This document shows, one piece after another, positions 1 through 31,752 of a stretch of 64,000 nt of DNA (the first letter of the stretch is position 1; each line of letters opens with the position of its first letter). The position numbers and the translations under genes are program-made. The notes beneath the pieces were generated by a model, which did not search any database, was not told the DNA's origin, and saw nothing but the letters and a program-made list of their open reading frames with translations. The DNA is from Escherichia coli. Its GTDB lineage: Bacteria > Pseudomonadota > Gammaproteobacteria > Enterobacterales > Enterobacteriaceae. Where the stretch lies: the NCBI RefSeq assembly GCF_001677475.2, contig NZ_CP015229.1; one strand, given 5' to 3'.

Positions 1-240
1 GGCAACGTGCTGCAGCTGTCATTGCCAGATATTGCTTTACCGGAGCCTGAAACGCCGCCTGCCGCAACGGTTGTCGCTCAGGAGGGCGAAGATGAATATC
101 AGTTGATTGTTCGCGTGCTGAAAGAAACAAACGGCGTGGTTGCCGGGCCTAAAGGCGCTGCGCAACGTCTGGGGCTGAAACGCACGACTCTGCTGTCACG
201 GATGAAGCGACTGGGAATTGATAAATCGGCATTGATTTAA
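1..240 (+). CDS. fhlA: Formate hydrogenlyase transcriptional activator FhlA, C-terminal fragment (gene continues upstream of window)
   Basis: Frame is open from the window start; C-terminal HTH-like tail (...LKRTTLLSRMKRLGIDKSALI) ends at a stop at 238-240; position matches fhlA upstream of ygbA/mutS. Confidence 0.7.
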   Translation, partial: GNVLQLSLPDIALPEPETPPAATVVAQEGEDEYQLIVRVLKETNGVVAGPKGAAQRLGLKRTTLLSRMKRLGIDKSALI

Positions 241-284
241 CAGATGTGGTTATACTCGATCAACATTCAATGAAAGGAGGCAGT

Positions 285-713
285 ATGGCAGTTTCAGCAA
301 GAAATCAATTAACCGGAACAGTTAGCGCAGTAGCAATGGGCGCGGTGAATGACGAAGTAGAACTGACGCTGGCAGGTGGTGCAAAGCTGGTGGCAATTGT
401 GACTCACAGCAGCCAGCAGGCTCTGGGTCTGGCGAAAGGGAAAGAAGCGATTGCCCTGATTAAAGCCCCGTGGGTAACGCTGGCAACGGAAGACTGTGGA
501 CTGAAATTCTCTGCTCGCAACCAGTTTGCTGGCAGCGTGTCGACAATCACCGAAGGCGCAGTGAACGCCACTGTCCATATCAAAACGGATGCGGGTTTTG
601 AAATTGTGGCAGTGGTAACAAATGAAAGTCAGGATGAAATGAAACTCACCACTGGCTCACGCGTTATTGCATTGATCAAAGCATCAGCCATCCTGATTGC
701 CACCAAAGCGTAA
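285..713 (+). CDS. Tandem TOBE (Mop-type) molybdate/oxyanion-binding protein, about 142 aa
   Basis: Two about 70-aa repeats (ARNQLTG.VS.V.....V...V.L.GG..L.A.VT / ARNQFAGSVSTITEGAVNATVHIKTDAGFEIVAVVT) typical of Mop/TOBE domains. Start taken at ATG 285, preceded by AAAGGAGG; the ORF-track start at 246 is GTG with no SD. Confidence 0.7.
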   Translation: MAVSARNQLTGTVSAVAMGAVNDEVELTLAGGAKLVAIVTHSSQQALGLAKGKEAIALIKAPWVTLATEDCGLKFSARNQFAGSVSTITEGAVNATVHIKTDAGFEIVAVVTNESQDEMKLTTGSRVIALIKASAILIATKA

Positions 714-751
714 GCGCCTTATTTGCCGGAGAGTATGGCTCTCCGGCAGAT

Positions 752-1096
752 TTATTTCTTTGGACGATATTTTTCTGGCAACTCCGGCACCGGACGCTTG
801 TCATCGATGAGATGACGCACAGTTAAGATCGGGTGACGCCACAGCATTCTCGGCCCGGCCCAACGCATAATCTGTTTCATCTCTTCACGCTTTGCAGGCT
901 GGTAACAGTGCACCGGACACTGCTTACAGGCTGGTTTCTCTTCGCCGAACACACATTTATCCAGCCGCTTTTGCGCGTAAGTAAACAACGCCTCATAATG
1001 CTCCGGCTCCGCTGACGCCTGCGGGCATTTCGCTTGATAAAGATCGATCATTTTTTTAATCGTCAGTTTTTCACGAGAGATACGCTTGCCGGACAT
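752..1096 (-). CDS. ygbA: Cys-rich small protein, NO-stimulated-promoter family (YgbA-like)
   Basis: 114-aa ORF with CxxC...C...CxxC pattern (CPQ...CVFGEEKPACKQCPVHC), divergent from mutS as in E. coli; the family assignment is from recall. Confidence 0.7.
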   Translation of the reverse strand: MSGKRISREKLTIKKMIDLYQAKCPQASAEPEHYEALFTYAQKRLDKCVFGEEKPACKQCPVHCYQPAKREEMKQIMRWAGPRMLWRHPILTVRHLIDDKRPVPELPEKYRPKK

Positions 1097-4049: not shown

Positions 4050-4706
4050 ATGCCATCTACACGCTATCAAAAAATTAATGCCCATCACTATCGTTATATA
4101 TGGGCCGTTGGTGATATTCATGGTGACTATCAATTATTACAATCCCGCTTACATCAACTCTCTTTTTGCCCTGAAACCGACTTACTTATTTCTGTCGGCG
4201 ATAATATTGATCGTGGGCCGGAGAGTCTTAACGTACTACGCCTGTTAAACCAGCCCTGGTTTACATCGGTTAAAGGCAACCATGAAGCGATGGCGCTTGA
4301 TGCATTCGAAACTGGCGATGGAAATATGTGGCTTGCCAGCGGCGGCGACTGGTTCTTTGAATTAAATGAGACGGAACAACAAGAAGCAATAAATCTGTTG
4401 CTGAAATTTCATCGCCTTCCACATATTATTGAAATCACTAACGACATAATAAAATATGTCATCGCACATGCAGATTATCCGGGGAATGAATATCTCTTTG
4501 GCAAAGAAATAGCGGAGAGCGAATTACTCTGGCCTGTTGATCGTGTGCAGAAATCACTTAATGGCGAGTTACAACAAATAAACGGCGCTGATTATTTTAT
4601 ATTTGGACATATGATGTTTGATAACATTCAGACGTTCGCTAACCAGATTTATATTGATACCGGATCGCCGAAAAGCGGGCGGCTGTCATTTTATAAAATA
4701 AAGTAG
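4050..4706 (+). CDS. pphB: Serine/threonine protein phosphatase 2 (PrpB)
   Basis: 218 aa; calcineurin-like metallophosphatase motifs GDIHG, GDNIDRG, GNHE. Confidence 0.9.
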   Translation: MPSTRYQKINAHHYRYIWAVGDIHGDYQLLQSRLHQLSFCPETDLLISVGDNIDRGPESLNVLRLLNQPWFTSVKGNHEAMALDAFETGDGNMWLASGGDWFFELNETEQQEAINLLLKFHRLPHIIEITNDIIKYVIAHADYPGNEYLFGKEIAESELLWPVDRVQKSLNGELQQINGADYFIFGHMMFDNIQTFANQIYIDTGSPKSGRLSFYKIK

Positions 4707-4707
4707 T

Positions 4708-4733
4708 CTCATGCTTCTTCTGTGAAGCATGAG
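4708..4733. terminator. Hairpin between convergent pphB and ygbI
   Basis: 9-bp inverted repeat CTCATGCTT / AAGCATGAG with an 8-nt loop; AT-rich flank on the minus-strand side. Confidence 0.35.
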
Positions 4734-4756
4734 TAACCCGGTGTTATTGCAGGCCA

Positions 4757-5524
4757 TTATTCATTTTTCGCTACCAGCAAAGAGAGATCCTGCTTCGCCA
4801 GCGCGCGACTGGCACTCTCCGGCAAACCGTCGTCTGTAATGATCTGATCAAACTCGCTTAATGGTAACGCCAGCCATGTCGCCACCTGACCATATTTCGT
4901 CGCATCACAGACCAAAACTCGCTGGCGGCTGGCACTGGCAATCGCCCGTTTCACCGTGACTTTATCTTCCGCTGGCGTAGAAATCCCCCGCACACTCCAT
5001 GACGATGCAGAAATAAAAGCCTGATCAATCATCAGGCTGCGCAGCATAGTCGCAGCGGCTTCCCCGACACAGGAACGGTTTTCCCGACACACTGCACCGC
5101 CAGTGTGAATAATTGTGCAATTACTATTGTCGAGCAAGTAGTCTGCAATAACGAAATCGTTTGTGACCACAGTCAGTGACTCCATGTGAATCAGATGCTG
5201 TGCTATCGCTAACGTGGTCGTTCCCGCATCCAGATAGATACAACTTCCCGGCTGAACAAGACTTGCCGCCAGCTTGCCAATAGCCGCTTTTTGCGTCATT
5301 GCCAGCGCAGTTTTTACCTGATGAGAAGGTTCATGCGCCACGCGTCCCGGAGACTGGACGCCTCCGGACACCAGCACAACGGCTCCCTGCTGCTCCAGTT
5401 TTTGTAAATCCCGACGAATGGTCATATGTGACACATTCATTCTGTCCGTTAGTTCAGCAATACTGACAATGCCTTTTTCAGCTACCATCTCAAGGATGAT
5501 TTGGCGACGCTCTACGGGTATCAA
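4757..5524 (-). CDS. ygbI: DeoR-family transcriptional regulator
   Basis: N-terminal DeoR HTH (IAELTDRMNVSHMTIRRDL) plus sugar-binding domain. Start set at TTG 5524, preceded by AAGGAAGGAG at 6-nt spacing, giving 255 aa; the ORF-track ATG at 5554 has no SD. Confidence 0.85.
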   Translation of the reverse strand: MIPVERRQIILEMVAEKGIVSIAELTDRMNVSHMTIRRDLQKLEQQGAVVLVSGGVQSPGRVAHEPSHQVKTALAMTQKAAIGKLAASLVQPGSCIYLDAGTTTLAIAQHLIHMESLTVVTNDFVIADYLLDNSNCTIIHTGGAVCRENRSCVGEAAATMLRSLMIDQAFISASSWSVRGISTPAEDKVTVKRAIASASRQRVLVCDATKYGQVATWLALPLSEFDQIITDDGLPESASRALAKQDLSLLVAKNE

Positions 5525-5719
5525 CTTTTGCTCCTTCCTTTGTCCTGCTGACATTCTACGCTATTTGCCTGCGAAACGTGCGCGGCGCAACTAATGCTTA
5601 GTTCACATAAAATAACACACAATGTTAATTTTTGTGAATCAGCTCACCATATCGTTATCTTCCAGCGCTTATATTCACAATATCAAACAAAATATCACTT
5701 AAATTAACAAGGAGAGAAG

Positions 5720-6628
5720 ATGAAAACGGGATCTGAGTTTCATGTCGGTATCGTTGGCTTAGGGTCAATGGGAATGGGAGCAGCACTGTCATGTGTCCGC
5801 GCAGGTCTTTCTACCTGGGGCGCAGACCTGAACAGCAATGCCTGCGCTACGTTGAAAGAGGCAGGTGCTTGCGGGGTTTCTGATAACGCCGCGACGTTTG
5901 CCGAAAAACTGGACGCTCTGCTGGTGCTGGTGGTCAATGCGACCCAGGTTAAACAGGTGCTGTTTGGTGAAACAGGCGTTGCACAACATCTGAAACCCGG
6001 TACGGCAGTAATGGTTTCTTCCACTATCGCTAGTGCTGATGCGCAAGAAATTGCTACCGCTCTGGCTGGATTCGATCTGGAAATGCTGGATGCGCCAGTT
6101 TCTGGTGGTGCAGTAAAAGCCGCTAACGGTGAAATGACTGTCATGGCCTCCGGTAGCGATATTGCCTTTGAACGACTGGCACCCGTGCTGGAAGCCGTTG
6201 CCGGAAAAGTTTATCGCATCGGTGCAGAACCGGGACTAGGTTCGACCGTAAAAATTATTCACCAGTTGTTAGCGGGCGTACATATTGCTGCCGGAGCCGA
6301 AGCGATGGCACTTGCAGCCCGTGCGGGGATCCCGCTGGATGTGATGTATGACGTCGTGACCAATGCCGCCGGAAATTCCTGGATGTTCGAAAACCGGATG
6401 CGTCATGTGGTGGATGGCGATTACACCCCGCATTCAGCCGTCGATATTTTTGTTAAGGATCTTGGTCTGGTTGCCGATACAGCCAAAGCCCTGCACTTCC
6501 CGCTGCCATTGGCCTCAACAGCATTGAATATGTTCACCAGCGCCAGTAACGCGGGTTACGGGAAAGAAGACGATAGCGCAGTTATCAAGATTTTCTCTGG
6601 CATCACTCTACCGGGAGCGAAATCATGA
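5720..6628 (+). CDS. ygbJ: NAD-dependent 3-hydroxyisobutyrate-dehydrogenase-family enzyme (L-threonate dehydrogenase LtnD-like)
   Basis: 302 aa; N-terminal Rossmann GxGxxG (VGIVGLGSMGMG); first gene of the ygbJKLM cluster. Confidence 0.85.
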   Translation: MKTGSEFHVGIVGLGSMGMGAALSCVRAGLSTWGADLNSNACATLKEAGACGVSDNAATFAEKLDALLVLVVNATQVKQVLFGETGVAQHLKPGTAVMVSSTIASADAQEIATALAGFDLEMLDAPVSGGAVKAANGEMTVMASGSDIAFERLAPVLEAVAGKVYRIGAEPGLGSTVKIIHQLLAGVHIAAGAEAMALAARAGIPLDVMYDVVTNAAGNSWMFENRMRHVVDGDYTPHSAVDIFVKDLGLVADTAKALHFPLPLASTALNMFTSASNAGYGKEDDSAVIKIFSGITLPGAKS

Positions 6629-7887
6629 TCAAGATTGGCGTTATCGCCGATGATTTTACCGGCGCGACGGATATCGCCAGTTTTCTGGTGGAAAACGGTC
6701 TACCAACGGTACAAATTAACGGTGTTCCCACAGGTAAAATGCCGGAAGCAATCGACGCACTAGTGATCAGCCTGAAAACGCGCTCCTGTCCGGTGGTTGA
6801 AGCCACACAGCAATCGCTGGCGGCTCTGAGCTGGTTGCAACAGCAAGGTTGCAAACAGATCTATTTCAAATACTGCTCTACTTTCGACAGTACGGCGAAA
6901 GGTAATATCGGCCCGGTTACCGATGCGTTAATGGATGCTCTCGACACGCCGTTTACGGTCTTCTCTCCGGCCCTGCCGGTCAACGGACGTACGGTTTATC
7001 AGGGGTATTTGTTCGTAATGAATCAACTGCTGGCCGAATCTGGGATGCGCCATCACCCGGTAAATCCCATGACCGACAGCTATCTTCCCCGTCTGGTTGA
7101 AGCGCAATCCACAGGGCGCTGCGGCGTCGTTTCGGCACATGTTTTCGAACAAGGTGTAGATGCCGTTCGTCAGGAGCTGGCTCGCTTACAGCAAGAGGGC
7201 TATCGCTACGTGGTACTTGATGCGCTGACCGAACACCATCTGGAAATTCAGGGAGAAGCCTTGCGCGATGCTCCACTGGTAACGGGCGGTTCTGGTCTGG
7301 CGATTGGCCTGGCCCGGCAGTGGGCGCAAGAAAACGGTAACCAGGCTCGCGAAGCAGGGCGTCCGCTCGCTGGGCGCGGCGTAGTGCTCTCCGGTTCATG
7401 CTCTCAAATGACCAACCGCCAGGTGGCACATTACCGTCAAATTGCACCAGCCCGTGAAGTTGATGTGGCACGCTGCCTCTCAACCGAAACTCTGGCCGCT
7501 TATGCACACGAACTGGCAGAGTGGGTTCTGGGCCAGGAAAGTGTACTTGCTCCACTGGTTTTTGCCACCTCCAGCACTGACGCATTGGCAGCAATTCAAC
7601 AGCAATACGGTGCACAAAAAGCCAGTCAGGCAGTAGAAACGCTGTTTTCTCAACTAGCGGCGCGGTTAGCAGCGGAAGGCGTGACACGCTTTATTGTCGC
7701 AGGCGGTGAGACCTCCGGCGTAGTCACACAGAGCCTGGGCATAAAAGGGTTTCATATTGGCCCAACCATTTCCCCCGGCGTGCCGTGGGTAAACGCACTG
7801 GATAAGCCTGTCTCACTCGCCCTTAAATCTGGCAACTTCGGTGATGAAGCCTTTTTTTCACGAGCCCAAAGAGAGTTTTTATCATGA
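6625..7887 (+). CDS. ygbK: Four-carbon acid-sugar kinase, DUF1537 family (3-oxo-tetronate kinase OtnK-like)
   Basis: 420 aa; N-terminus MIKIGVIADDFTGATD typical of DUF1537 kinases; ATGA overlap with ygbJ stop. Confidence 0.85.
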   Translation: MIKIGVIADDFTGATDIASFLVENGLPTVQINGVPTGKMPEAIDALVISLKTRSCPVVEATQQSLAALSWLQQQGCKQIYFKYCSTFDSTAKGNIGPVTDALMDALDTPFTVFSPALPVNGRTVYQGYLFVMNQLLAESGMRHHPVNPMTDSYLPRLVEAQSTGRCGVVSAHVFEQGVDAVRQELARLQQEGYRYVVLDALTEHHLEIQGEALRDAPLVTGGSGLAIGLARQWAQENGNQAREAGRPLAGRGVVLSGSCSQMTNRQVAHYRQIAPAREVDVARCLSTETLAAYAHELAEWVLGQESVLAPLVFATSSTDALAAIQQQYGAQKASQAVETLFSQLAARLAAEGVTRFIVAGGETSGVVTQSLGIKGFHIGPTISPGVPWVNALDKPVSLALKSGNFGDEAFFSRAQREFLS

Positions 7888-8522
7888 GCGATTTCGCAAA
7901 AGTAGAGCAGTCTTTGCGAGAGGAGATGACGCGGATTGCCAGTTCATTCTTTCAGCGCGGCTATGCAACCGGTTCGGCTGGCAATCTGTCGCTGCTTTTA
8001 CCTGACGGGAATTTACTGGCGACACCGACAGGTTCATGCCTGGGTAATCTCGATCCGCAGCGGCTTTCCAAAGTCGCCGCGGATGGCGAATGGTTAAGTG
8101 GTGACAACCCCTCGAAAGAGGTGCTCTTTCATCTGGCGCTGTATCGCAACAATCCGCGCTGTAAAGCGGTGGTGCATTTGCACAGCACATGGTCGACGGC
8201 GCTTTCCTGCCTGCAAGGGCTGGACAGCAGCAACGTTATTCGTCCGTTCACACCATATGTGGTGATGCGGATGGGAAATGTCCCGCTGGTGCCCTATTAC
8301 CGACCGGGCGATAAACGCATCGCACAGGATCTGGCGGAACTGGCAGCAGACAATCAGGCTTTTTTACTGGCAAATCATGGCCCAGTGGTTTGCGGTGAAA
8401 GCCTGCAAGAAGCCGCCAACAATATGGAAGAGCTGGAGGAAACGGCAAAGCTGATTTTTATTCTCGGTGACCGCCCGATCCGTTATCTGACCGCAGGTGA
8501 AATTGCGGAATTAAGGAGTTAA
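7884..8522 (+). CDS. ygbL: Class II aldolase/adducin-family decarboxylase (OtnC-like)
   Basis: 212 aa; class II aldolase-like fold; ATGA overlap with ygbK stop. Confidence 0.85.
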
Positions 8523-8526
8523 TGCA

Positions 8527-9303
8527 ATGCCTCGTTTTGCAGCTAATTTATCCATGATGTTCACCGAAGTGCCTTTTATTGAACGCTTCGCCGCAGCGCG
8601 AAAAGCCGGGTTCGATGCTGTGGAATTTCTGTTTCCCTATGACTACTCCCCCCTGCAAATCCAAAAGCAACTGGTGCAAAACCATCTGACACTGGCGCTG
8701 TTCAATACCGCTCCCGGAGATATTAATGCGGGGGAATGGGGATTATCCGCCCTTCCCGGACGTGAGCAGGAAGCACGCGCAGACATCGACCTGGCACTGG
8801 AATATGCATTGGCGCTCAATTGTGAACAAGTCCATGTGATGGCAGGCGTCGTGCCCGCTGGCGAAGATGCTGAACGGTACCGGGCGGTATTTATCGATAA
8901 TCTCCGCTACGCTGCCGACCGCTTTGCGCCACACGGCAAGCGAATATTGGTTGAAGCACTCAGCCCCGGCGTTAAGCCTCATTATCTCTTCTCCAGCCAG
9001 TATCAGGCACTGGCTATTGTTGAAGAGGTTGCGCGAGATAACGTGTTTATTCAACTAGATACTTTCCATGCGCAAAAAGTAGATGGCAACCTGACGCATT
9101 TAATCCGCGACTACGCCGGGAAATATGCGCACGTACAAATTGCCGGACTACCTGATCGTCATGAACCGGACGATGGAGAAATCAACTATCCGTGGCTGTT
9201 CCGCCTGTTCGATGAAGTGGAATATCAGGGCTGGATCGGTTGTGAATACAAACCTCGTGGCCTCACCGAAGAAGGGCTTGGCTGGTTTGACGCCTGGCGC
9301 TAA
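8527..9303 (+). CDS. ygbM: Hydroxypyruvate-isomerase-family (TIM-barrel) isomerase (OtnI-like)
   Basis: 258 aa; xylose-isomerase-like TIM barrel; follows ygbL by 4 nt. Confidence 0.85.
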
Positions 9304-9391
9304 TTCGCTAAATCCCTAATTACAACGTACCCATACATCCCCCCATCTACGGATGGGGTAGGTTAACTATAACTTTCAGACAGGGTTTCCC

Positions 9392-10756
9392 ATGTCCACA
9401 ATTACATTGTTATGCATTGCGTTAGCTGGCGTAATCATGCTGTTGCTGCTGGTCATCAAGGCAAAGGTTCAACCATTCGTTGCTCTGCTCCTCGTCAGCC
9501 TGTTAGTCGCACTTGCGGCGGGTATACCGGCGGGCGAAGTGGGTAAAGTGATGGTCGCCGGGATGGGCGGTGTGCTTGGTTCCGTCACTATTATTATTGG
9601 TCTGGGCGCTATGCTGGGGCGTATGATCGAACACTCTGGTGGTGCAGAGTCACTGGCTAATTATTTCAGTCGCAAGTTAGGTGACAAACGAACTATCGCT
9701 GCGCTGACTCTGGCAGCGTTCTTCCTCGGTATTCCCGTCTTCTTTGATGTCGGCTTTATTATTCTTGCGCCAATCATTTACGGTTTTGCCAAGGTTGCCA
9801 AAATATCGCCACTCAAATTTGGCCTGCCTGTCGCTGGGATCATGCTCACTGTTCACGTGGCGGTACCGCCGCATCCAGGCCCTGTCGCCGCAGCGGGGTT
9901 ACTCCACGCAGACATCGGCTGGCTAACCATCATCGGTATTGCGATTTCTATTCCCGTAGGGATTGTTGGCTACTTTGCAGCGAAAATAATCAATAAGCGC
10001 CAATATGCGATGTCAGTAGAAGTACTGGAACAGATGCAACTGGCTCCGGCCAGTGAGGAAGGCGCGACAAAATTAAGCGATAAAATAAATCCACCGGGCG
10101 TCGCGCTGGTCACCTCGCTAATTGTTATTCCTATCGCGATTATCATGGCGGGTACGGTTTCTGCAACACTGATGCCGCCTTCGCATCCCCTGCTTGGTAC
10201 GCTACAGCTGATCGGCTCACCAATGGTAGCTCTAATGATTGCGCTGGTGCTGGCATTCTGGTTATTGGCTTTACGTCGCGGCTGGAGCTTACAACACACC
10301 AGCGACATTATGGGCTCAGCGCTTCCTACTGCGGCGGTAGTGATTTTGGTTACTGGTGCTGGAGGGGTATTTGGCAAAGTGCTGGTGGAATCGGGCGTCG
10401 GCAAAGCCCTTGCCAACATGTTACAAATGATTGACCTGCCTCTGTTACCAGCCGCATTTATTATTTCACTGGCGCTGCGTGCATCGCAGGGGTCAGCAAC
10501 CGTAGCAATACTGACAACCGGCGGGTTACTCTCAGAAGCGGTGATGAGATTGAATCCGATTCAGTGCGTATTGGTGACGCTGGCAGCCTGCTTTGGTGGG
10601 CTTGGTGCGTCACATATTAATGACTCAGGGTTCTGGATTGTGACCAAATATCTGGGATTGTCGGTAGCAGACGGTCTGAAAACCTGGACAGTGTTAACGA
10701 CCATTCTTGGTTTTACCGGATTCTTAATCACCTGGTGCGTATGGGCGGTGATTTAA
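9392..10756 (+). CDS. ygbN: GntP-family acid-sugar permease
   Basis: 454 aa, polytopic membrane protein; completes the ygbIJKLMN cluster. Confidence 0.85.
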   Translation: MSTITLLCIALAGVIMLLLLVIKAKVQPFVALLLVSLLVALAAGIPAGEVGKVMVAGMGGVLGSVTIIIGLGAMLGRMIEHSGGAESLANYFSRKLGDKRTIAALTLAAFFLGIPVFFDVGFIILAPIIYGFAKVAKISPLKFGLPVAGIMLTVHVAVPPHPGPVAAAGLLHADIGWLTIIGIAISIPVGIVGYFAAKIINKRQYAMSVEVLEQMQLAPASEEGATKLSDKINPPGVALVTSLIVIPIAIIMAGTVSATLMPPSHPLLGTLQLIGSPMVALMIALVLAFWLLALRRGWSLQHTSDIMGSALPTAAVVILVTGAGGVFGKVLVESGVGKALANMLQMIDLPLLPAAFIISLALRASQGSATVAILTTGGLLSEAVMRLNPIQCVLVTLAACFGGLGASHINDSGFWIVTKYLGLSVADGLKTWTVLTTILGFTGFLITWCVWAVI

Positions 10757-10763
10757 CCTTAAT

Positions 10764-10794
10764 AAAAAGGTCCGATGAGCATCGGACCTTTTAT
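10764..10794. terminator. Bidirectional rho-independent terminator between ygbN and the decarboxylase operon
   Basis: AAAGGTCCGAT-GAGC-ATCGGACCTTT hairpin flanked by an A-run upstream and TTTTATTT downstream; sits between convergent stops at 10756 and 10795. Confidence 0.75.
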
Positions 10795-11031
10795 TTAGCG
10801 CTTATCTGCCGCCAGCAGCGGCGGGATGCTCGGCACCATTGGCGCGTCATCAATATCTTTTTGTGTCATACGGAACGCTTGTGGGTAATGTTCACGGCTG
10901 GTGCGGCGTAGCGGTTCGGTATCGCGCCAGGTATAAAGGCAATGCTGGCACTGATATACCGTCCAGACATCTTTCACCGGCGATTTCGCCATCACTTCAA
11001 TCTGTTCATCGGCACAACGTGGACAAATCAT
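10795..11031 (-). CDS. Small subunit of UbiD-family (de)carboxylase (EcdD/KpdD/BsdD-like)
   Basis: 78 aa with Cys motifs (MICPRC...CQHC), directly downstream of the UbiD-like gene; arrangement typical of phenolic-acid decarboxylase BCD operons. Confidence 0.7.
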   Translation of the reverse strand: MICPRCADEQIEVMAKSPVKDVWTVYQCQHCLYTWRDTEPLRRTSREHYPQAFRMTQKDIDDAPMVPSIPPLLAADKR

Positions 11032-11041
11032 CTTCTTCTCC

Positions 11042-12469
11042 TTATTGACGCGCGGCCAGCATAGCGGTCAGTTTTTCAGCCCAGGCTTTGGTTTCCGGCA
11101 AATCCACCACCGGCTGGCTGTAGTGACCACGGTTGTCCGGGGCGACAGGCGTGGTGGCGTCGATAATCAGCTTGTCGGTGATGCCTGCCGGGCTTGAGCC
11201 AGGGTCGAGTTCCAGCACGGACATATTTGGTAGTTGCACCAAGTCGCCCGCCGGGTTCACTTTCGAGGAGAGCGCCCACATCACCTGCGGCAGGTTGAAC
11301 GGGTCAACGTCTTCATCGACCATAATCACCATCTTCACGTAGCCCAGACCGTGCGGCGTGGTCATCGCACGCAGGCCCACCGCGCGGGCAAAGCCGCCGT
11401 AGCGTTTTTTGGTGGAGATAATCGCCAGCAGGCCGTGGGTGTACATGGCGTTTACCGCCTGCACTTCCGGGAACTCGGCTTTCAGTTGTTGATACAGCGG
11501 TACGCAGGTGGCTGGCCCCATCAGGTAGTCGATTTCGGTCCACGGCATGCCGAGGTACAGCGATTCGAAAATCGGCCTGGTGCGGTAAGAGACTTTATCG
11601 ATGCGCACCACGGTCATGTTACGCCCGCCGGAGTAGTGTCCGGTAAACTCACCGAACGGCCCTTCGATTTCGCGTTTACGGCTTTCGATGACCCCTTCGA
11701 GGATCACTTCTGAACCCCACGGCACATCAAAACCGGTCAGCGGGGCGGTAGCGATCGGGTATGGGCTTTCACGCAGCGCGCCTGCCATTTCATACTCAGA
11801 CTGATCGTATTTCAGTGGCGTAGCCCCCATCAGCGTGATGATCGGATCGTTACCGAGCGTGATCGCAATCGGTAGATCTTCACCGCGCTCTTCTGCTTTA
11901 TGTAGATGCAGGGCGATATCGTGCATCGGCACCGGTTGTAGGCCGAGCTTTCGCTTGCCCTTCACTTCCATGCGGTAGATGCCGACGTTCTGCTTGCCGA
12001 AGTTATCCGGGTCGAGCGGATCGCGGGAAACCACGCAGGCTTTGTCGAGATAGAAACCGCCATCGCCATCGTTTAAACGAAACAGCGGCAGGATATCGAA
12101 CAGGTTAATCTCGTCGCTATCAACGGTGTTCTGCGCCCAGGCAGGATTGGCGCGGCGCTCCGGGGCAATCGGGAAGTTATCCCAGCGGCGAATAAACTCA
12201 TCAATCTGTTTTTTAACCGGAGTGTTTGCCGGCAGGCCGAGGGAAATCGCATGGTTCTGCCAGGAACCGATGGTATTCATCGCCACGCGGGCATCGGTAA
12301 AGCCGCGAATATTGTCAAACCACAGCGCCGGTGCGCCGTCGCCGATACGCCCGGTGGCGTTAGCTGCTGCTGCCAGATCCGGCTCAGCGTTCACCTCTTC
12401 GCTGATTTTCAGTAACTGGCCGTGGTCATCAAGCGCCTGTAAAAAGCTGCGTAAATCATCAAATGCCAT
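11042..12469 (-). CDS. UbiD-family prenylated-FMN-dependent aromatic-acid decarboxylase (EcdC/YclC-like)
   Basis: 475 aa; UbiD-like N-terminus MAFDDLRSFLQALDDHGQLLKISEEVNAEPDLAAAA. Confidence 0.85.
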   Translation of the reverse strand: MAFDDLRSFLQALDDHGQLLKISEEVNAEPDLAAAANATGRIGDGAPALWFDNIRGFTDARVAMNTIGSWQNHAISLGLPANTPVKKQIDEFIRRWDNFPIAPERRANPAWAQNTVDSDEINLFDILPLFRLNDGDGGFYLDKACVVSRDPLDPDNFGKQNVGIYRMEVKGKRKLGLQPVPMHDIALHLHKAEERGEDLPIAITLGNDPIITLMGATPLKYDQSEYEMAGALRESPYPIATAPLTGFDVPWGSEVILEGVIESRKREIEGPFGEFTGHYSGGRNMTVVRIDKVSYRTRPIFESLYLGMPWTEIDYLMGPATCVPLYQQLKAEFPEVQAVNAMYTHGLLAIISTKKRYGGFARAVGLRAMTTPHGLGYVKMVIMVDEDVDPFNLPQVMWALSSKVNPAGDLVQLPNMSVLELDPGSSPAGITDKLIIDATTPVAPDNRGHYSQPVVDLPETKAWAEKLTAMLAARQ

Positions 12470-13062
12470 TATTTATTCTCCTGAGAAAAATTCCGGGCCT
12501 GCGGCAATCCTTGCCAGCGCCTGGCGTGGGGATGTTCGAGGCCAAATTGATCCAGCACGCGGGCTACCACATGGTGGACAATGTCATCTACCGTTTCGGG
12601 ATGGTTATAAAAGGCAGGCATCGGCGGCACCATCGCCACGCCCATGCGTGAAAGTGCGAGCATATTTTCGAGATGGATGGTGCTAAGCGGCATTTCACGC
12701 GGCACCAGCACCAGTTTGCGGCCTTCTTTGAGCACGACGTCCGCCGCGCGCCCTACCAGGCCATCGGCGTAACCAGCGCGGATACCGGAGAGCGTTTTCA
12801 TACTGCACGGAATAACGATCATGCCGTCGGTACGAAAAGAACCGGATGAGATGATCGCCGCCTGATCCGCCGGGTTATGGCTGAAGTCTGCGAGGGCAGC
12901 AACATCGCGAGCGCTGTAAGGCGTTTCCAGTTCAATGGTGGTTTTCGCCCACTTCGACATCACCAGATGAGTCTCGACATTCGGCATCTCCCGCAGCGCT
13001 TGCAGTAATGCCACACCAAGAGGCGCACCGGTAGCCCCTGTCATCCCGACGATCAGTTTCAT
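12469..13062 (-). CDS. UbiX/Pad1-family flavin prenyltransferase (EcdB-like)
   Basis: 197 aa; N-terminal MKLIVGMTGATGAPLGVALLQAL is the UbiX/PAD1 flavoprotein signature; stop overlaps the UbiD-like start by 1 nt. Confidence 0.85.
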   Translation of the reverse strand: MKLIVGMTGATGAPLGVALLQALREMPNVETHLVMSKWAKTTIELETPYSARDVAALADFSHNPADQAAIISSGSFRTDGMIVIPCSMKTLSGIRAGYADGLVGRAADVVLKEGRKLVLVPREMPLSTIHLENMLALSRMGVAMVPPMPAFYNHPETVDDIVHHVVARVLDQFGLEHPHARRWQGLPQARNFSQENK

Positions 13063-13208
13063 TGCTTATTCTCTTAATTGTTCGTATACGAACGTTATTA
13101 TTAACATACTCCTTCATTTCCACAGCGGCAAGGATTGAAAAGTAACAACATCTTCTTCGTCACTAAAAAACCGCTATGATAGCGACAGAGAATTAGCCCG
13201 GAGTTTAC

Positions 13209-13616
13209 ATGGCGTTACGAAATAAAGCGTTCCATCAGTTACGACAGCTTTTTCAGCAGCACACGGCTCGCTGGCAGCACGAGTTACCTGACCTGACCAA
13301 ACCACAGTATGCGGTGATGCGCGCCATTGCTGATAAGCCTGGTATCGAACAGGTGGCACTGATAGAAGCAGCAGTCAGCACCAAAGCAACGTTGGCAGAA
13401 ATGTTGGCAAGAATGGAGAATCGTGGCTTAGTCAGACGTGAACATGATGCCGCTGACAAGCGGCGTCGCTTTGTCTGGCTGACTGCCGAAGGAGAAAAGG
13501 TACTTGCTGCGGCGATACCGATTGGTGACAGTGTGGATGAGGAATTTTTGGGGCGTTTGAGTGCAGAAGAGAAGGAGCTGTTTATGCAGCTGGTGCGCAA
13601 GATGATGAGCACATAG
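13209..13616 (+). CDS. MarR-family transcriptional regulator, divergent from the decarboxylase operon
   Basis: 135 aa; winged-helix MarR architecture (…QYAVMRAIADKPGIEQVALIEAAVSTKATLAEMLARMENRGLVRR…). Confidence 0.8.
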   Translation: MALRNKAFHQLRQLFQQHTARWQHELPDLTKPQYAVMRAIADKPGIEQVALIEAAVSTKATLAEMLARMENRGLVRREHDAADKRRRFVWLTAEGEKVLAAAIPIGDSVDEEFLGRLSAEEKELFMQLVRKMMST

Positions 13617-13624
13617 AATGCTGA

Positions 13625-13660
13625 TTGCCGGGTAGGACGCTGACGTGTCTTATCCAGGCG
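13625..13660. repeat. REP-like palindromic element
   Basis: GACGCTGACGTGTCTTATCCAGGC closely matches the E. coli REP core (GACGCTGACGCGTCTTATCAGGC). Confidence 0.4.
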
Positions 13661-13683
13661 ACAAAAACACATGCATCCCAAAC

Positions 13684-13720
13684 AAAAGAAAAAAGGCCAG
13701 CCTCGCTTGAGACTGGCCTT
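13684..13720 (-). terminator. rpoS rho-independent terminator
   Basis: GGCCAG / CTGGCC stem with 12-nt loop, followed on the minus strand by TTTTTTCTTTTGTTT; 17 nt after the rpoS stop. Confidence 0.7.
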
Positions 13721-24816: not shown

Positions 24817-25516
24817 GGGAGTTCTACCGCAGGGGCGGGGAACTCCAAGTGATATCCATCATCGCATCCAGTGCGCCCGGTTTATCCCCGCTGGCGCGGG
24901 GAACACCAAATCCAGCCAGCCGCCGACGGTAATCACCCCGGTTTATCCCCGCTGGCGCGGGGAACACTATGGGGTAGGGCGCTATCAGACATTTACGCAC
25001 GGTTTATCCCCGCTGGCGCGGGGAACACTGCAAGTAACGTTAAGGGAACCGTGGAGACAGCGGTTTATCCCCGCTGGCGCGGGGAACACTTAGAAAACGC
25101 AATGAGCCGCGCGCCCATACCCGGTTTATCCCCGCTGGCGCGGGGAACACGGCACGCTGGACTGAACAAATCCCTGGGCCATCGGTTTATCCCCGCTGGC
25201 GCGGGGAACACACTTACAACCACAATAATAAAAAAAGCCTCGTCGGTTTATCCCCGCTGGCGCGGGGAACACGCCGCTATCTCACCACCAGAACTGTTAC
25301 CCGTCGGTTTATCCCCGCTGGCGCGGGGAACACTTGCAGTGGATAGTCATGTAGCCCGCGCGGGCCGGTTTATCCCCGCTGGCGCGGGGAACACTTTAAA
25401 TACTGCCGTTCCAGCTTGTTGATCGCCGGTTTATCCCCGCTGGCGCGGGGAACACCGTAACTGCCTGTACACGCTGTAATGGCTCACCGGTTTATCCCCG
25501 CTGGCGCGGGGAACAC
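24817..25516 (-). CRISPR. CRISPR array 1 (type I-E): 11 identical 29-nt repeats plus 1 degenerate terminal repeat, 11 spacers of 32 nt
   Basis: Repeat CGGTTTATCCCCGCTGGCGCGGGGAACAC (plus strand) recurs at 24878 + 61k for k=0..10. Degenerate distal repeat at 24817-24845 (GGGAGTTCTACCGCAGGGGCGGGGAACTC). Leader is on the cas2 side, so transcription is on the minus strand. Confidence 0.97.
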
Positions 25517-25612
25517 ACTAAGCATACATAACTGTTTTTAAACAAATTTATTCCGCATCAACAATCTACCAACTAAATTAAAACATTTCCTTATTTTTAA
25601 AGAACGGATAAC
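25517..25612 (-). promoter_or_regulatory. CRISPR array 1 leader (AT-rich) between cas2 stop and first repeat
   Basis: AT-rich 96 nt; contains ACAATCTACCAAC about 42 nt from the first repeat, a motif also present in the array 2 leader. Confidence 0.7.
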
Positions 25613-26822
<1,210 letters not shown>

Positions 26823-26826
<4 letters not shown>

Positions 26827-27473
26827 GCCTCTGCTCCGGGTTTGATCAGCATCAGACCACAACCGAACGCCCGGCTTTTGCCATACCCCTGACTGAGACG
26901 TTGCAGAAATAACCCAGGATCGGTGACCGTAAGCATCCCCGTATAATCCACGCTACTGAACTGGATCAGTTGCCGGGAGTTTTCCCGCCGCAGTTGCTGT
27001 TGTCGGTAGGCATCAACCGAAGTATCCAGCAGTGTAAAACCGCTTCTCTCCCCCTGCGCTGCCAGCCAGTTCAGCGCAGCCTGTTGTTGATGCAACCAGA
27101 CATCACTTCCTTCCACCGGCCCCCTCACCTGCCGTTTCGCCTCCATCAGCAAGTCGTGGCGTTTGCCCGCTTTACAAATTGTTGGATTCGCCCGCAGGTT
27201 GAAACAAAGGGATTGTCCGGTACGCAACTCTGGCGCAAATGGTCGGCATTCGATGGTGAAAATATCACTTTCCGCCGGGCGTTCCTGCGACAGGACAAAA
27301 AAGCGAAACGCCCCCTGGAGTTCTTCCCGACGATAAAGAAATTGCCTTTCTTTGCCGCCAGGAAAAAGATCCCACAGCCACTGATGCATTACATATTCAC
27401 CGCGATCCACCAAATGCAGCAACTGCGCAGGCGAAAGCTGGCCGGTATGTAATGTTATTCTTGAGAGGTACAT
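26823..27473 (-). CDS. cas6e: crRNA endoribonuclease Cas6e (CasE)
   Basis: Start at ATG 27473 (MYLSRITLH…) preceded by AAGGAGGA; 216 aa; Gly-rich C-terminal segment (GYGKSRAFGCGLM). Strongly diverged from K-12 CasE as recalled. Confidence 0.9.
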
Positions 27474-28201
27474 GGTTCCTCCTTGCTGAGCCACGGCCCC
27501 TGATTGATGGTGCGTTCCCCAAACAGCCACTGCTGACGATTTAAAGGAACATCCCGGCGACGTAATATTTTGCTCGCGACCAGGCCGTCGTGTTCCCCTT
27601 CCCACCAGCATTCATCCTGAAGTTTCGGGAGTGAGACTTTCAGTTCGCGGAAACTATCCTGATACTGTTGGTATGCGTTACGTAAGACATCAGACGCGTT
27701 GCCTTCGAGCAGTAACGGCGCAAGTGGTAACGCCAGCGGATGACTTTTTCGCCCCAGATAAAGCGGAAAAACCGGATGACGTAAACCGTCCTGCAACTGT
27801 TCAAGGCTGTAAGGCGCATCGGGGGTTGTTGCCACCGCCACCATCCACCAGGCATCGGTGTAGTAGTCGCGCCGGGAGATAATCGCGCTCAGAAGATCAG
27901 GGGCGCTCAACTCTTCGCGACGGCTGAAATAACGCGCTTTACGCACCTCTTTTGGCATCTGGACCGTGTGATAATCCCGTGCCCAGCGCGGGTTACGGCT
28001 GGCGCAAACCACCAGTGAATAGTGGCGGTTAAACGCGTTTAATCGTTCGGTATCATCACGCCGAATCCCTACCCCGGCAGCCAGCAGCCCCAGCAATGCT
28101 GAGCGCGAAGGCAGTTCATGGGTATGACGCACTTCGCCGGGGGCATCGACGCCCCAGGATGCCATTGGCCCATGAAGCTGAAAAATCAAATATTGGCTCA
28201 T
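27455..28201 (-). CDS. cas5: Cascade subunit Cas5e (CasD)
   Basis: 248 aa; N-terminus MSQYLIFQLHGPMASWG parallels K-12 CasD (MRSYLILRLAGPMQAWG); 19-nt overlap with cas6e start. Confidence 0.9.
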   Translation of the reverse strand: MSQYLIFQLHGPMASWGVDAPGEVRHTHELPSRSALLGLLAAGVGIRRDDTERLNAFNRHYSLVVCASRNPRWARDYHTVQMPKEVRKARYFSRREELSAPDLLSAIISRRDYYTDAWWMVAVATTPDAPYSLEQLQDGLRHPVFPLYLGRKSHPLALPLAPLLLEGNASDVLRNAYQQYQDSFRELKVSLPKLQDECWWEGEHDGLVASKILRRRDVPLNRQQWLFGERTINQGPWLSKEEPCTSQE

Positions 28202-28211
28202 TAGCCGCCCC

Positions 28212-29267
28212 TTACGCGCAGATAAAGTCCAGCACGTCCTTCATGCTTCCCTGTTTGTTCATCACGTCAAAGCTTGCGCATTCGGTCTTCTGTTCATAGA
28301 CCGTATTCATATTTTCGCGAAGCGTTGTAATACGCTGCACCGCCACATCTAACTGCCGGGTGCCATTAATGGGTTCATAGAAAGCCGCCGCCAGAGAGCG
28401 TGGTTGTTCAGTGCCTTTTTCTGCCAGCGCCCAGGAGGCGTAGGCACGGCTGGCAAAGCTGTTCTGTTTGCCGGTTGGGGAGACTTTAAGTGCGGCTTCC
28501 GTAAAGGCGCGCAAGGTCTGATTAGCTAACGCTTCGTCACCGCCGAGGTTTTCGACCAGCAGATCTTTATCGATGCAGATATAGGTGTAGAACAGCGCAG
28601 AACCGAATCCGGTTTCACCAAGATGCCCGGCACCGGCATCTTCAGAAGCCTGGCGCAAATCATCAACGGCGGTGAAAAAATCATCTTCGACAATCGTTTC
28701 ACTGACACCAAATGCATGCGCGACCTGGCAGGCGGCTTCAACATTAAATTCGGGTTTATTCGCCAGCATACGACCAAACATAGCGATATCTACTGCCATG
28801 CGATCTTTACGTAACAAAGCGAGATCTTCCTCTTTTGGCGCGCGCTTTTCTTCGGCCAGTTGATGGGCCAGCGCTTTTACGGCGTCAAATTCTGCCGGGC
28901 TGATATGGACTAGCTGTTCAGTTTCGGCGTTAGTGAGCGGATCTTTTGGTTTTTTGTCGTTTTTAGCTTTCCCAAGATAATCCGCAATTTTCGCCGCCCA
29001 TTCGATGGCTTTTTTCTCTTCGATGCCTTTCTCAATCAGGATAGTTGCCGCCTCACGCGCAATACGCCCACTGCGAATACCAATATGGCCCGCCAGCGCC
29101 TGTTCAAAAAGTGCAGAAGTGCGCCACGCACGTTTCAGACTTTGTGAGGAAACGCGCAGACGCGTTGCTCCACCCAGTACCACAGTTTTTGGCGCACCGG
29201 TGTCATCACGGTTAAGGTTGGCAGCAGGGTAAGCGGTTAACAAATGAAGCTGAATAAATGTCGTCAT
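28212..29267 (-). CDS. cas7: Cascade backbone subunit Cas7e (CasC)
   Basis: 351 aa; N-terminal …LNRDDTGAPKTVVLGGATRLRVSSQSLKRAWR… typical of Cas7e. Confidence 0.9.
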   Translation of the reverse strand: MTTFIQLHLLTAYPAANLNRDDTGAPKTVVLGGATRLRVSSQSLKRAWRTSALFEQALAGHIGIRSGRIAREAATILIEKGIEEKKAIEWAAKIADYLGKAKNDKKPKDPLTNAETEQLVHISPAEFDAVKALAHQLAEEKRAPKEEDLALLRKDRMAVDIAMFGRMLANKPEFNVEAACQVAHAFGVSETIVEDDFFTAVDDLRQASEDAGAGHLGETGFGSALFYTYICIDKDLLVENLGGDEALANQTLRAFTEAALKVSPTGKQNSFASRAYASWALAEKGTEQPRSLAAAFYEPINGTRQLDVAVQRITTLRENMNTVYEQKTECASFDVMNKQGSMKDVLDFICA

Positions 29268-29281
29268 GAGATAGTCCTTTA

Positions 29282-29818
29282 TTAATTTTGTTCGTTATCG
29301 GCGTCGCCAGCCTGGTAATATTCCAGCGCCCAGCGGATACGGATAAATTCTGTTGGCCGCTGCTGGCGGCGGTGATGATTGAGCAGATCGTCGCTCTCCT
29401 GGCACCAGCGGAAAATATCGTCTGCCAAAGAGATAAGATTGACGGAACCATTTAATAATTTGACCGCGCGACGTAACTGGCGCAGTAATTCATCCGGCGT
29501 TTTGACTGCCGACAGGCGAGTAAAACGCCCCTCAGACATTACCGCCGCCAACTGCGCGGCAAAAGGCTGCCGTTCATCAATGGCTTTTACATTGGCGGCA
29601 ACGGCGGCAACCAGCGCCAGTGCGGTAAAACGCCACTCCTGTGATTCAATTTTCCACAACGTGTGGGTCTGCATCAGCAGTGAACGAAACCCTTCTGACA
29701 GACAAACATCATTAACCGTTGTGCTACGCCGCAGACTGGCACGATTGCCGCGTTTTTCCTGCAACTCTTCGTGCCATTTACGCAGCGTGGCTTTGTGCTC
29801 CTCTTTTACAATACTCAT
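29282..29818 (-). CDS. cse2: Cascade small subunit Cse2 (CasB)
   Basis: 178 aa, basic helical protein between cse1 and cas7; ATGA overlap with cse1 stop. Confidence 0.85.
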   Translation of the reverse strand: MSIVKEEHKATLRKWHEELQEKRGNRASLRRSTTVNDVCLSEGFRSLLMQTHTLWKIESQEWRFTALALVAAVAANVKAIDERQPFAAQLAAVMSEGRFTRLSAVKTPDELLRQLRRAVKLLNGSVNLISLADDIFRWCQESDDLLNHHRRQQRPTEFIRIRWALEYYQAGDADNEQN

Positions 29819-31377
29819 TCAGCAGCCTCCTGCTTTTTCTCCCTGGCGGCTTTAGCACTTTGCTTCTCCGCCGATGTTGTAAAATATTTCTTGCGCGCGG
29901 TCATGACGCGTTTCAAATCAACGGGCTCATAAGGATTAGTGAATACACGCTCGTCAAAATCCTGACGCGCGAATAACCAAATTTCCTTTTGCCATTTGCC
30001 GAGTAATTCATCCGCATCCTGACCTTCTTCAATTTGGCGCACTAACCTCAGGAAGCGATGCTGAGTTTTGTTCCAGAAGTCGATATCCACAAAACTGAAA
30101 TCACCCCTTGCACCTTTTGGATCGGAGAACCATGCTTCTTTCAATGCACTCCGTAACAGACTCAGAATCCGTGAAGCCGTTTGCGCAGCCAGCCGCAGCT
30201 TCGGTATCTGGCCTTCTTTTTTATTGAGCAGTAGCGGGAAATGGTGTTCGTACCAACAGCGCGCTTTCATGTTGTCAAAATCATAACCAAATCCCCACAG
30301 GCCCACTTTTGCCTGTTTCAGACTGCTGGCATTAAAGAGTTTCACCACCAGCGCGGGAAGTTCCGTATTGTTTTCTGATTTACCCGTTTCGATAAGGCCT
30401 AACCAGTCGCGCCAGATTAAACCGCCCGGTTGTGGTTTAACGGAGTAAAACTCGCCACCCTCTTTAAGTGGTACACGGTAAGGCGTTAAGGGATGCTGCC
30501 ACATGGCATAATTGGCACCATAATTTTTGGTCGTCATCAGGCTCAGGAGCGCGTCGTTCTGCTCGTCGCAAATATCGCAGTTGCCGACTGTCGTGGTATT
30601 AAAATCAATACGTATACGCCGCGGCATTCCCCAGTACGCCTGGAGTTTATTGACCTGATCATGGGTTACCACCGCACCGGCCAGTTCGCTGGTACGCGTC
30701 GGGCCTAGCCAGGGGAAAATCAGATCGTCAAATTTTTTGGGTAGCGGTAAGTCGGCTTCATCCTGCGGCATCACGTTGAGCCACAGTTTGCGCCACAAGG
30801 GTGTTTGTTGATTGCCCTGATATTCCTGTAATTCAATGAGAGTCGTCATCGGCCCACCGCCGCGTAAACCGGTGCGATAGCCTTTGCCGCCCGCGGGTGC
30901 ATTCAACTGTAAAGAGAACAAGGCCAATGCTAAGCAATGGGGGCACAGATATTCCGTTACACCCCGCTTGATAAAATGGTCTTTATTAAACTTCGTCGTT
31001 TGAGAACCGGGAATCTCAGGCAGTAGCGAAGCGACCGGAACTTTATCTCCCGTGAGCGCCTCAAAATCCTGCATAAATGAAGGGGAATCTGGCCCAAACT
31101 GGAAAGCATGTTCTAAGGACAGCAATGCTTCCCGTAGCTTTTCAGCTTCCAGTCCGTCTTCCCAGATATCATCCCAACGACGATGATCTTTTGGCGCGAA
31201 GCTGGTTTGTAGTAGCCCCAGCAAAAACTGCCAGGCCGCCCCCTGGAGATCTGCCCGCGGCGCAGCGATATCGACAACATTTTCATCCGCCAGATCGACT
31301 GGCGCCAGTTTGCCTGTCGTTCCGTCTTTATAACGAACGGGCAACCACGGGGTTGTTATAATTGAAAAAAATTCCAT
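29815..31377 (-). CDS. cse1: Cascade large subunit Cse1 (CasA)
   Basis: Start at ATG 31377 (MEFFSIITTPWLPVRYKDG…) with GAGG SD; ORF-track start 31392 is TTG. N-terminus parallels K-12 Cse1 (…NWIPVRPRNG…). Confidence 0.88.
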   Translation of the reverse strand: MEFFSIITTPWLPVRYKDGTTGKLAPVDLADENVVDIAAPRADLQGAAWQFLLGLLQTSFAPKDHRRWDDIWEDGLEAEKLREALLSLEHAFQFGPDSPSFMQDFEALTGDKVPVASLLPEIPGSQTTKFNKDHFIKRGVTEYLCPHCLALALFSLQLNAPAGGKGYRTGLRGGGPMTTLIELQEYQGNQQTPLWRKLWLNVMPQDEADLPLPKKFDDLIFPWLGPTRTSELAGAVVTHDQVNKLQAYWGMPRRIRIDFNTTTVGNCDICDEQNDALLSLMTTKNYGANYAMWQHPLTPYRVPLKEGGEFYSVKPQPGGLIWRDWLGLIETGKSENNTELPALVVKLFNASSLKQAKVGLWGFGYDFDNMKARCWYEHHFPLLLNKKEGQIPKLRLAAQTASRILSLLRSALKEAWFSDPKGARGDFSFVDIDFWNKTQHRFLRLVRQIEEGQDADELLGKWQKEIWLFARQDFDERVFTNPYEPVDLKRVMTARKKYFTTSAEKQSAKAAREKKQEAAE

Positions 31378-31752
31378 ACGCTTTCCTCGCAAATAAGACC
31401 ATCCATGGTAGGTTGTCCATCACCATATTCAAGAATCAATCGAAAAGAGAGATTACATCATATTAAATGAATATATTGAAAATTAGATTATTATTAAATA
31501 ATCAATAAATCACACGAATATATAAAGATAATTTTCTATAATGCTTTTCGCTCAGGCTCTATCACTTAATAAAAACCAAAGTATTCTTTATCAAAAGGTT
31601 TTTCAACTCTGCTTCCGGACATTGTTACATATATCAATAACTCTTAGAGATTTTCTTTATTTCGAATAACCCTTATTTTTGATATAAACGTCTTCAGTTC
31701 CCTGTCTAAGGGATTAACCAAGTTAGTGATACACGTATATCATTTTATGCTC
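31378..31752 (-). promoter_or_regulatory. AT-rich cas3-cse1 intergenic region, presumed Cascade operon promoter
   Basis: 375-nt strongly AT-rich spacer upstream of cse1. By analogy with K-12, where this region holds the H-NS-silenced, LeuO-activated Pcas promoter; not demonstrated here. Confidence 0.45.

Follow-up and report, generated by a model that had tools for sequence, protein, structure and literature searches.

A predicted ModG-type molbindin encoded behind fhlA in Enterobacteriaceae and apparently lost from K-12 and other Escherichia coli lineages

Introduction

Studies of molybdenum handling and of formate hydrogenlyase in E. coli have relied nearly entirely on K-12, a strain that does not carry the gene described here. 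In the window (the whole 64,000-nucleotide stretch of E. coli DNA that was analyzed), a small gene for a protein with Mop/TOBE repeats lies behind fhlA, and its place raises the questions of what such a protein does, whether it serves formate hydrogenlyase in particular, and how it came to be missing from K-12. The domain architecture of the TudG/ModG proteins has already been surveyed in gut genomes, and the best-known protein of this build, ModG of A. vinelandii, is trimeric, binds eight molybdates, and has a role in molybdenum homeostasis (PMC11980592). An earlier note on this DNA, made from the letters alone, had considered that the gene might turn out to be already characterized; no such characterization came up in the searchable literature, and our search of it found no paper on the enterobacterial gene, on its link with fhlA, or on its loss from K-12.

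Results

The gene and its domain content

The 142-amino-acid protein (here called the molbindin) gave two matches to TOBE PF03459 in Pfam (E = 8.8e-35) and two matches to "Mop" TIGR00638 in NCBIfam (E = 4e-42), which together span amino acids 2 to 140, and no further domain above cut-off was found in Pfam or NCBIfam. The protein thus is the stand-alone tandem TOBE/Mop protein that the earlier note had described, and the claim that the gene follows fhlA directly was equally accurate, with 44 nt between the fhlA stop codon and the ATG. The two halves of the protein are identical to each other at 30 of 70 positions. A strong ribosome-binding site, AAAGGAGG, ends 4 nt upstream of the ATG at 285. 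An alternative in-frame GTG at 246, used by a few database entries, would give 155 amino acids; we chose the ATG as the start because the N terminus M-x-[VI]-SARN is common to all orthologues and ModG. The length of 142 amino acids is constant across genera, and the dN/dS values of the gene against orthologues from E. albertii to Edwardsiella range from 0.03 to 0.11, which argues that the gene is functional and strongly constrained. RefSeq names the product "TOBE domain-containing protein" (WP_000301062.1), while elsewhere it goes by "transporter," "molybdopterin-binding protein," or "molybdate transport system regulatory protein." The features of the locus are collected in Table 1.

Table 1. 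Coordinates in the window of the molbindin gene, its predicted domains, and the flanking features
Feature	Coordinates	Strand	Basis and details
fhlA 3' end (last 79 codons, stop 238-240), formate hydrogenlyase transcriptional activator	1..240	+	HTH_8 match; RefSeq annotation of the same locus in A16 and CFT073; tblastn with full-length FhlA
fhlA-to-gene spacer, 44 nt	241..284	+	-10-like TATACT at 251-256; ribosome-binding site AAAGGAGG at 273-280
Predicted ModG-type di-Mop molbindin gene	285..713	+	ORF call; ATG start, 142 aa, stop codon 711-713
Mop/TOBE domain 1 (aa 1-68)	285..488	+	Pfam and NCBIfam; putative ligand residues S4, R6, A20-V21-N22, T40, S43, K60, A61
Mop/TOBE domain 2 (aa 73-142)	501..710	+	Pfam and NCBIfam; putative ligand residues S76, R78, A92-V93-N94, T112, S115, K132, A133
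Intrinsic terminator, 14-bp hairpin 721-751 followed by T-rich tail	721..761	+	Terminator scan and fold; overlaps the 3' end of ygbA
ygbA, 114 aa, convergent neighbor, right border of the indel	752..1096	-	Pfam YgbA_NO, NCBIfam; K-12 allele 117 aa

Homology, fold, and ligand residues

Among solved structures, the closest sequence match of the molbindin was A. vinelandii ModG (PDB 1H9J, 1H9K, and 1H9M), which aligned over the full length (E = 5e-33 for 1H9J) with 68 of 140 residues identical (49%). The E. coli ModE di-Mop domain was the runner-up (E = 1e-15, 34 to 37% identity), and the single-domain molbindins Tub, MopII, and S. ovata Mop each matched one half of the 142-amino-acid protein. 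An AlphaFold2 model of the monomer, built on a 24-sequence alignment, had a mean pLDDT of 95.6. A Foldseek search of the PDB with this model gave the same ranking, with ModG at the top (TM 0.95, rmsd 1.3 Å over 142 columns), the ModE di-Mop domain next (TM about 0.89), and the TOBE domains of ABC transporters far behind.

In Tub, the type 1 oxyanion sites lie on the three-fold axis and use the backbone amides of Ala20-Val21-Asn22, and the type 2 sites at the interfaces use Ser4, Arg6, Lys60, and Ala61 together with Ser40 from the neighboring subunit; these sites are said to resemble those of ModG, Mop, and ModE (PMC11980592). We transferred the ligand roles from this structure description to the molbindin, with an offset of +72 for domain 2. 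The type 1 (A-V-N) and type 2 (S, R, T/S, K-A) ligand residues are present in both domains, and 15 of the 18 ligand positions checked do not vary among 33 enterobacterial orthologues and have the same residue in ModG. S115 is serine in 31 of the 33 orthologues and alanine in ModG, A133 is alanine in 32 of the 33, and S43 is serine also in ModG. Judged by its sequence and the monomer model, the 142-amino-acid protein is very probably a ModG-type oxyanion binder, and every feature that can be tested from a sequence agrees with the architecture of ModG.

The likeness to ModG extends from the overall build (two Mop domains in about 140 amino acids and nothing else) to the ligands of both site types, which are identical except at S115. 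The two genes differ in their setting. A. vinelandii modG lies in the mod locus, which is typical of modG although not defining, whereas the enterobacterial gene follows hyp-fhlA; its neighbors are hypE, fhlA, ygbA, and mutS, and its E. coli host is not a nitrogen fixer. Additionally, ModG is known as a trimer with eight sites and ModE-controlled expression, whereas the E. coli molbindin is known here from its sequence and a monomer model.

The other relatives are less close. E. coli ModE (PDB 1H9R, 1H9S, 1O7L, and 1B9M) shares the two-domain fold, and its first Mop domain has the same S, R, T, S, and K-A ligands. However, ModE has an N-terminal DNA-binding domain that the molbindin does not, and the second Mop domain of ModE has lost SARN and K-A (NADN and N-A-D in the alignment), while both domains of the molbindin are intact. 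We rejected an identity as a ModE regulator, as the protein has no winged-helix domain, aligned only to positions 124 to 261 of the 263-position ModE model, and scored 88 bits against a cut-off of 369 bits (NCBIfam). The single-domain molbindins (Mop of Clostridium pasteurianum, Sporomusa ovata, and Haemophilus influenzae and Tub of Eubacterium limosum; PDB 1GUG, 1FR3, and 9BEB) matched each half of the protein with E values of 2e-9 to 3e-5 and a TM to target of about 0.9, and they share a common ligand numbering (S4, R6, A20-V21-N22, T/S40, K60, A61). They are hexamers of about 70 amino acids per chain, whereas the E. coli protein fuses two domains, so that three chains would give the same assembly. 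The TOBE domains of the ABC ATPases ModC, WtpC, MalK, and CysA have the TOBE fold in common with the molbindin, but their sequence similarity is weak and the molbindin has no ATPase domain. An assignment as an ABC ATPase of the ModC/WtpC type was rejected, since only the C-terminal TOBE part of the models was matched, far below cut-off (NCBIfam).

Distribution in E. coli

The molbindin gene was found in 1,892 of 5,426 complete E. coli genomes (35%), always as a single chromosomal copy and, in all but one, with 95 to 100% identity. Carriers include CFT073, NU14, E2348/69, ATCC 25922, and a strain named ST648; going by strain names, we take the first four to be phylogroup B2 and the last phylogroup F. 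In CFT073 the protein is identical (locus C_RS15650), and the gene order is hypE-fhlA-gene-ygbA-mutS. The gene was absent from the K-12 derivative XL1-Blue and from O157:H7 and O111:H11. Among the sampled genomes without the gene, 25 of 26 gave a matching span of 931 to 934 nt instead of 1,400 nt, and H60 matched only at the mutS end. The earlier note had suspected that the gene might be missing from K-12 and vary between strains. Its absence from XL1-Blue and its presence in 1,892 of the 5,426 genomes bear out both points, and the comparison with K-12 and other E. coli excludes universal presence. Two genomes deviated in other ways: one had a copy that was only 80 to 90% identical, and FDAARGOS_1285 (H20/H120) contained only the first 126 to 170 nt of the locus, apparently a disrupted copy.

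Ancestry and the allele without the gene

We scanned one genome per species (49 loci, searched with HypD, HypE, FhlA, YgbA, and MutS) and found the order hypD-hypE-fhlA-gene in 35 of the 49 species loci. These belong to E. albertii, further Escherichia, nine species of Citrobacter, Pseudocitrobacter, Klebsiella, Raoultella, Kluyvera, Pluralibacter, Enterobacter, Yokenella, Lelliottia, and Kosakonia, and ygbA is often the next gene after the molbindin gene. Most of these loci have a spacer of 38 to 60 nt between fhlA and the gene; C. amalonaticus, Enterobacter soli, and Lelliottia have one of about 78 to 107 nt. Two loci of Phytobacter and one of Kosakonia (L036, L041, and L048) have the gene directly behind hypE. 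E. fergusonii also has the gene, and this, together with the order kept across genera, argues that the site originally held the gene and that part of E. coli has since lost it. As far as the sequences tell, the gene is ancestral in Enterobacteriaceae, and a stop-to-stop deletion removed it in lineages that include K-12 and O157:H7.

Some orthologues are found in other surroundings. In Raoultella sp. BIGb0138 (L015 3930-4447), the hyc-hyp-fhlA block is missing from the site except for the last 16 fhlA codons, and the gene is intact (91% identity) and lies between ascFB and sitABCD/ygbA. Enterobacter sp. BIGb0383 (L031) likewise has no hyc-hyp-fhlA at the site and an intact gene. Serratia, Cedecea, and Edwardsiella carry 68 to 73% identical orthologues amid unrelated genes. 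Salmonella enterica copies (L053 1174-5429 and L054) are 89% identical, occur in scattered serovars, and lie in an accessory island rather than beside fhlA; their neighbors are a sulfite-oxidase-family molybdoenzyme (Oxidored_molyb) and cytochrome b pair, a TetR regulator, an IS21 remnant, and fimbrial usher genes. Orthologues outside the hyc-hyp-fhlA setting in these genera argue for a general molybdenum-related role and the possibility of independent expression.

K-12 and O157 have the same junction at the locus without the gene. Read from the sequences, this allele lacks 473 nt, from just after the fhlA stop codon to the molbindin stop codon, and its ygbA is 9 nt longer, encoding 117 instead of 114 amino acids. 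YgbA has 114 amino acids in 17 of 19 gene-carrying loci compared (119 in L020 and 112 in L032), and the 117-amino-acid form was found only in the allele without the gene among the genera compared. Right of the deletion, a stretch of 87 nt (714-800, covering the terminator and the 3' end of ygbA) is about 71% identical between the window and K-12/O157 (L002 441-530 and L003), and it is flanked by an fhlA tail that is 96 to 99% identical and a ygbA body that is 98% identical. In the same 87 nt, identity to the window is 98.9% for the gene-carrying strains A16 and CFT073 and 93% for E. albertii. A simple clean deletion is therefore a poor fit as the complete account, since the adjoining 87 nt are about 29% diverged in the haplotype without the gene. 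The K-12 hairpin in this region is nearer to that of Citrobacter amalonaticus (L011, gene present) than to those of other Escherichia. A16, with the gene, and O157, without it, share an identical FhlA protein accession, and the neighborhood of mutS is a recognized hotspot of recombination and island insertion. An old or imported deletion allele that was spread by recombination would fit these observations.

Flanking DNA and expression signals

The terminator scan predicted no terminator in the spacer between fhlA and the gene (241-284), and the fold of this spacer (-4.3 kcal/mol, z +0.5) has no stable structure. The hairpin after the molbindin gene is strong (-23.1 kcal/mol, z -5.7), and the homologous hairpin of K-12 is kept, with a compensatory G-C to C-G change. 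In K-12, fhlA is transcribed from its own promoter and from the promoters of the hyp operon. Since no terminator precedes the molbindin gene and the spacer is only 44 nt long, the gene is most likely the last one of hypABCDE-fhlA transcripts, and the simplest reading is that transcription through fhlA continues into it as the final cistron. An extra weak promoter of its own is possible: the TATACT at 251-256 corresponds to a TATA[AC]N element about 30 to 38 nt before the ATG in most genera, where the remaining spacer has diverged.

A promoter scan of positions 1 to 1400 found no sigma-70 consensus promoter and no -35 element. Two regulated alternatives were rejected. A sigma-54 promoter of the type that FhlA uses would need a GG-N10-GC arrangement, which is absent from the spacer. 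As an upstream ModE operator we considered GTTATAC at 249-255, which by eye looks like a left half-site of the modA operator. The matching right half and its spacing, however, do not fit and are not kept in other genera. Rfam gave no match at E ≤ 1 for positions 1 to 1500, hence no riboswitch or sRNA. In Klebsiella and Raoultella, the TATA[AC]N element overlaps the fhlA stop codon.

Discussion

By analogy with ModG and from its place in the genome, the 142-amino-acid protein is probably (with a probability of roughly 0.6) a ModG-type binder that is made alongside hyp-fhlA and has FdhH as its main client. Three chains would form a trimer, which amounts to a pseudo-hexamer of Mop domains as in ModG. 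This trimer would have room for as many as eight ions of molybdate or tungstate, two of them on the three-fold axis through the backbone amides of A-V-N and the remaining six between subunits, where S, R, K-A, and T/S would hold them. A protein with neither a DNA-binding nor an ATPase domain would act by holding oxyanion and not by signaling. The earlier note had offered sensing as one option, and we see no support for this option, since the protein contains no DNA-binding or other output domain. If the gene is co-transcribed with hypABCDE-fhlA, the level of the molbindin would rise when formate hydrogenlyase is induced, and cytoplasmic molybdate would be buffered or stored for molybdenum-cofactor synthesis, with FdhH of formate hydrogenlyase as the likeliest main client. 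As a sink, the molbindin may also lower free molybdate and so postpone the ModE-mediated repression of import. We infer the trimer, the oxyanion binding, the co-transcription, and the physiological role; the tie to formate hydrogenlyase is circumstantial and a matter of position, because some species keep the gene without that neighborhood.

There is a precedent in R. capsulatus, where the gene for the molbindin Mop lies in nif cluster A and thus next to its client enzyme system. The listed function of this Mop is "molybdate storage," and the protein is abundant only when molybdenum is low, with 161 fmol without molybdenum versus 3 fmol with it (PMC6925177 Table 1). The tight junction with fhlA, kept over a long time, argues that most Enterobacteriaceae make the molbindin together with the maturation and regulator proteins of the hydrogenlyase. 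A stronger version of this reading would make the molbindin a dedicated, co-transcribed partner of the formate-hydrogenlyase regulon, which captures molybdate when FhlA is active, delays the ModE shut-off of import, and channels molybdenum to FdhH; lineages with and without the gene would then differ in H2 and formate metabolism at low molybdenum and in tungstate sensitivity. We regard this version as rather unlikely.

The main competitor of the ModG-type binder with FdhH as its client is a general cytoplasmic store of molybdate with no special tie to formate hydrogenlyase, for which the gene order would simply be inherited and expression would come from the gene's own promoter. The intact genes in the Raoultella and Enterobacter genomes where hyc-hyp-fhlA is deleted around them (L015 and L031) speak for it, as do the unrelated neighbors in Serratia, Cedecea, and Edwardsiella, the different island in Salmonella, and the -10-like TATA[AC]N upstream that is kept in many genera. 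Moreover, two thirds of E. coli do without the gene, K-12 among them, and the formate hydrogenlyase of K-12 is established to be fully working. However, the tight, terminator-free spacing between fhlA and the gene in 35 species loci speaks against a general store, and no consensus sigma-70 promoter was found in 1-1400. We consider a general store possible but somewhat unlikely.

A modulator of ModE or FhlA that depends on molybdate is a second alternative. Such a protein would compete with ModE for molybdate or co-assemble with the di-Mop domain of ModE and so tune modABC repression and the hyc expression that ModE assists. ModE-molybdate is a secondary activator of hyc, the molbindin is homologous to the ModE di-Mop domain (E = 1e-15, TM 0.89), and a position beside the hydrogenlyase regulator gene fits. 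Yet the molbindin has no output domain and is nearer to ModG than to ModE (49% versus 37% identity), and its ligands are kept in both domains as in storage proteins, whereas the second domain of ModE has lost them; these features make a modulator improbable.

It is very improbable that the molbindin serves mainly as a sink for tungstate, or for another tetrahedral oxyanion, that shields cofactor synthesis from mis-metallation. Sites of the Mop family accept either molybdate or tungstate; Tub binds the two oxyanions, and the ModE di-Mop domain and MopII have been solved with tungstate bound. Enterobacteriaceae, however, use ModABC and molybdoenzymes, and among the annotated neighbors in A16 and CFT073 no gene for a tungstate transporter or tungstoenzyme lies near the locus. 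A tungstate sink would be compatible with the preferred reading. A decaying remnant or a miscalled ORF, which the absence of the gene from 65% of E. coli genomes might suggest, is effectively refuted by conservation (dN/dS of 0.03 to 0.11, a constant 142 amino acids, conserved ligand residues, a strong ribosome-binding site, and a confident fold).

With a ModG-type binder as the preferred reading, an extra predicted cytoplasmic binder of molybdate or tungstate would be encoded in about one in three complete E. coli genomes, standard pathogenic and reference strains among them, and the sampled species of Citrobacter, Klebsiella/Raoultella, Kluyvera, and Enterobacter carry it as well. If the molbindin buffers molybdenum as ModG does, the behavior of carrier strains under molybdenum limitation and their response to tungstate could change. 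Tungstate poisons molybdoenzymes and has been used to suppress Enterobacteriaceae in the inflamed gut. Strains with and without the gene offer a simple natural test of the function of a molbindin in a bacterium that does not fix nitrogen, and the outcome would refine rather than overturn present understanding. The gene is of use to those who study molybdenum or tungstate physiology in strains other than K-12; a specialist would not find its existence surprising.

Other observations in the window

To the right of the locus, at about 1128-1307 on the minus strand, RefSeq places a small hypothetical protein (44 to 59 amino acids) between ygbA and mutS in E. coli genomes, and the ygbA-mutS spacer is unusually diverged between strains (91 to 93% identity). 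The mutS-rpoS interval (4706-13700) is composite. Up to 10,744 it is collinear with CFT073 (pphB, ygbI-ygbN), and from 10,783 it is collinear with the hydroxyarylic acid decarboxylase BCD-MarR-rpoS segment of A16; A16 has no ygbI-N, and CFT073 has no decarboxylase genes. Farther on, at about 24900-31400, the segment matching the type I-E CRISPR array and cas genes of A16 is 92.4% identical, compared with about 96% around it, and the blast matches overlap at the array.
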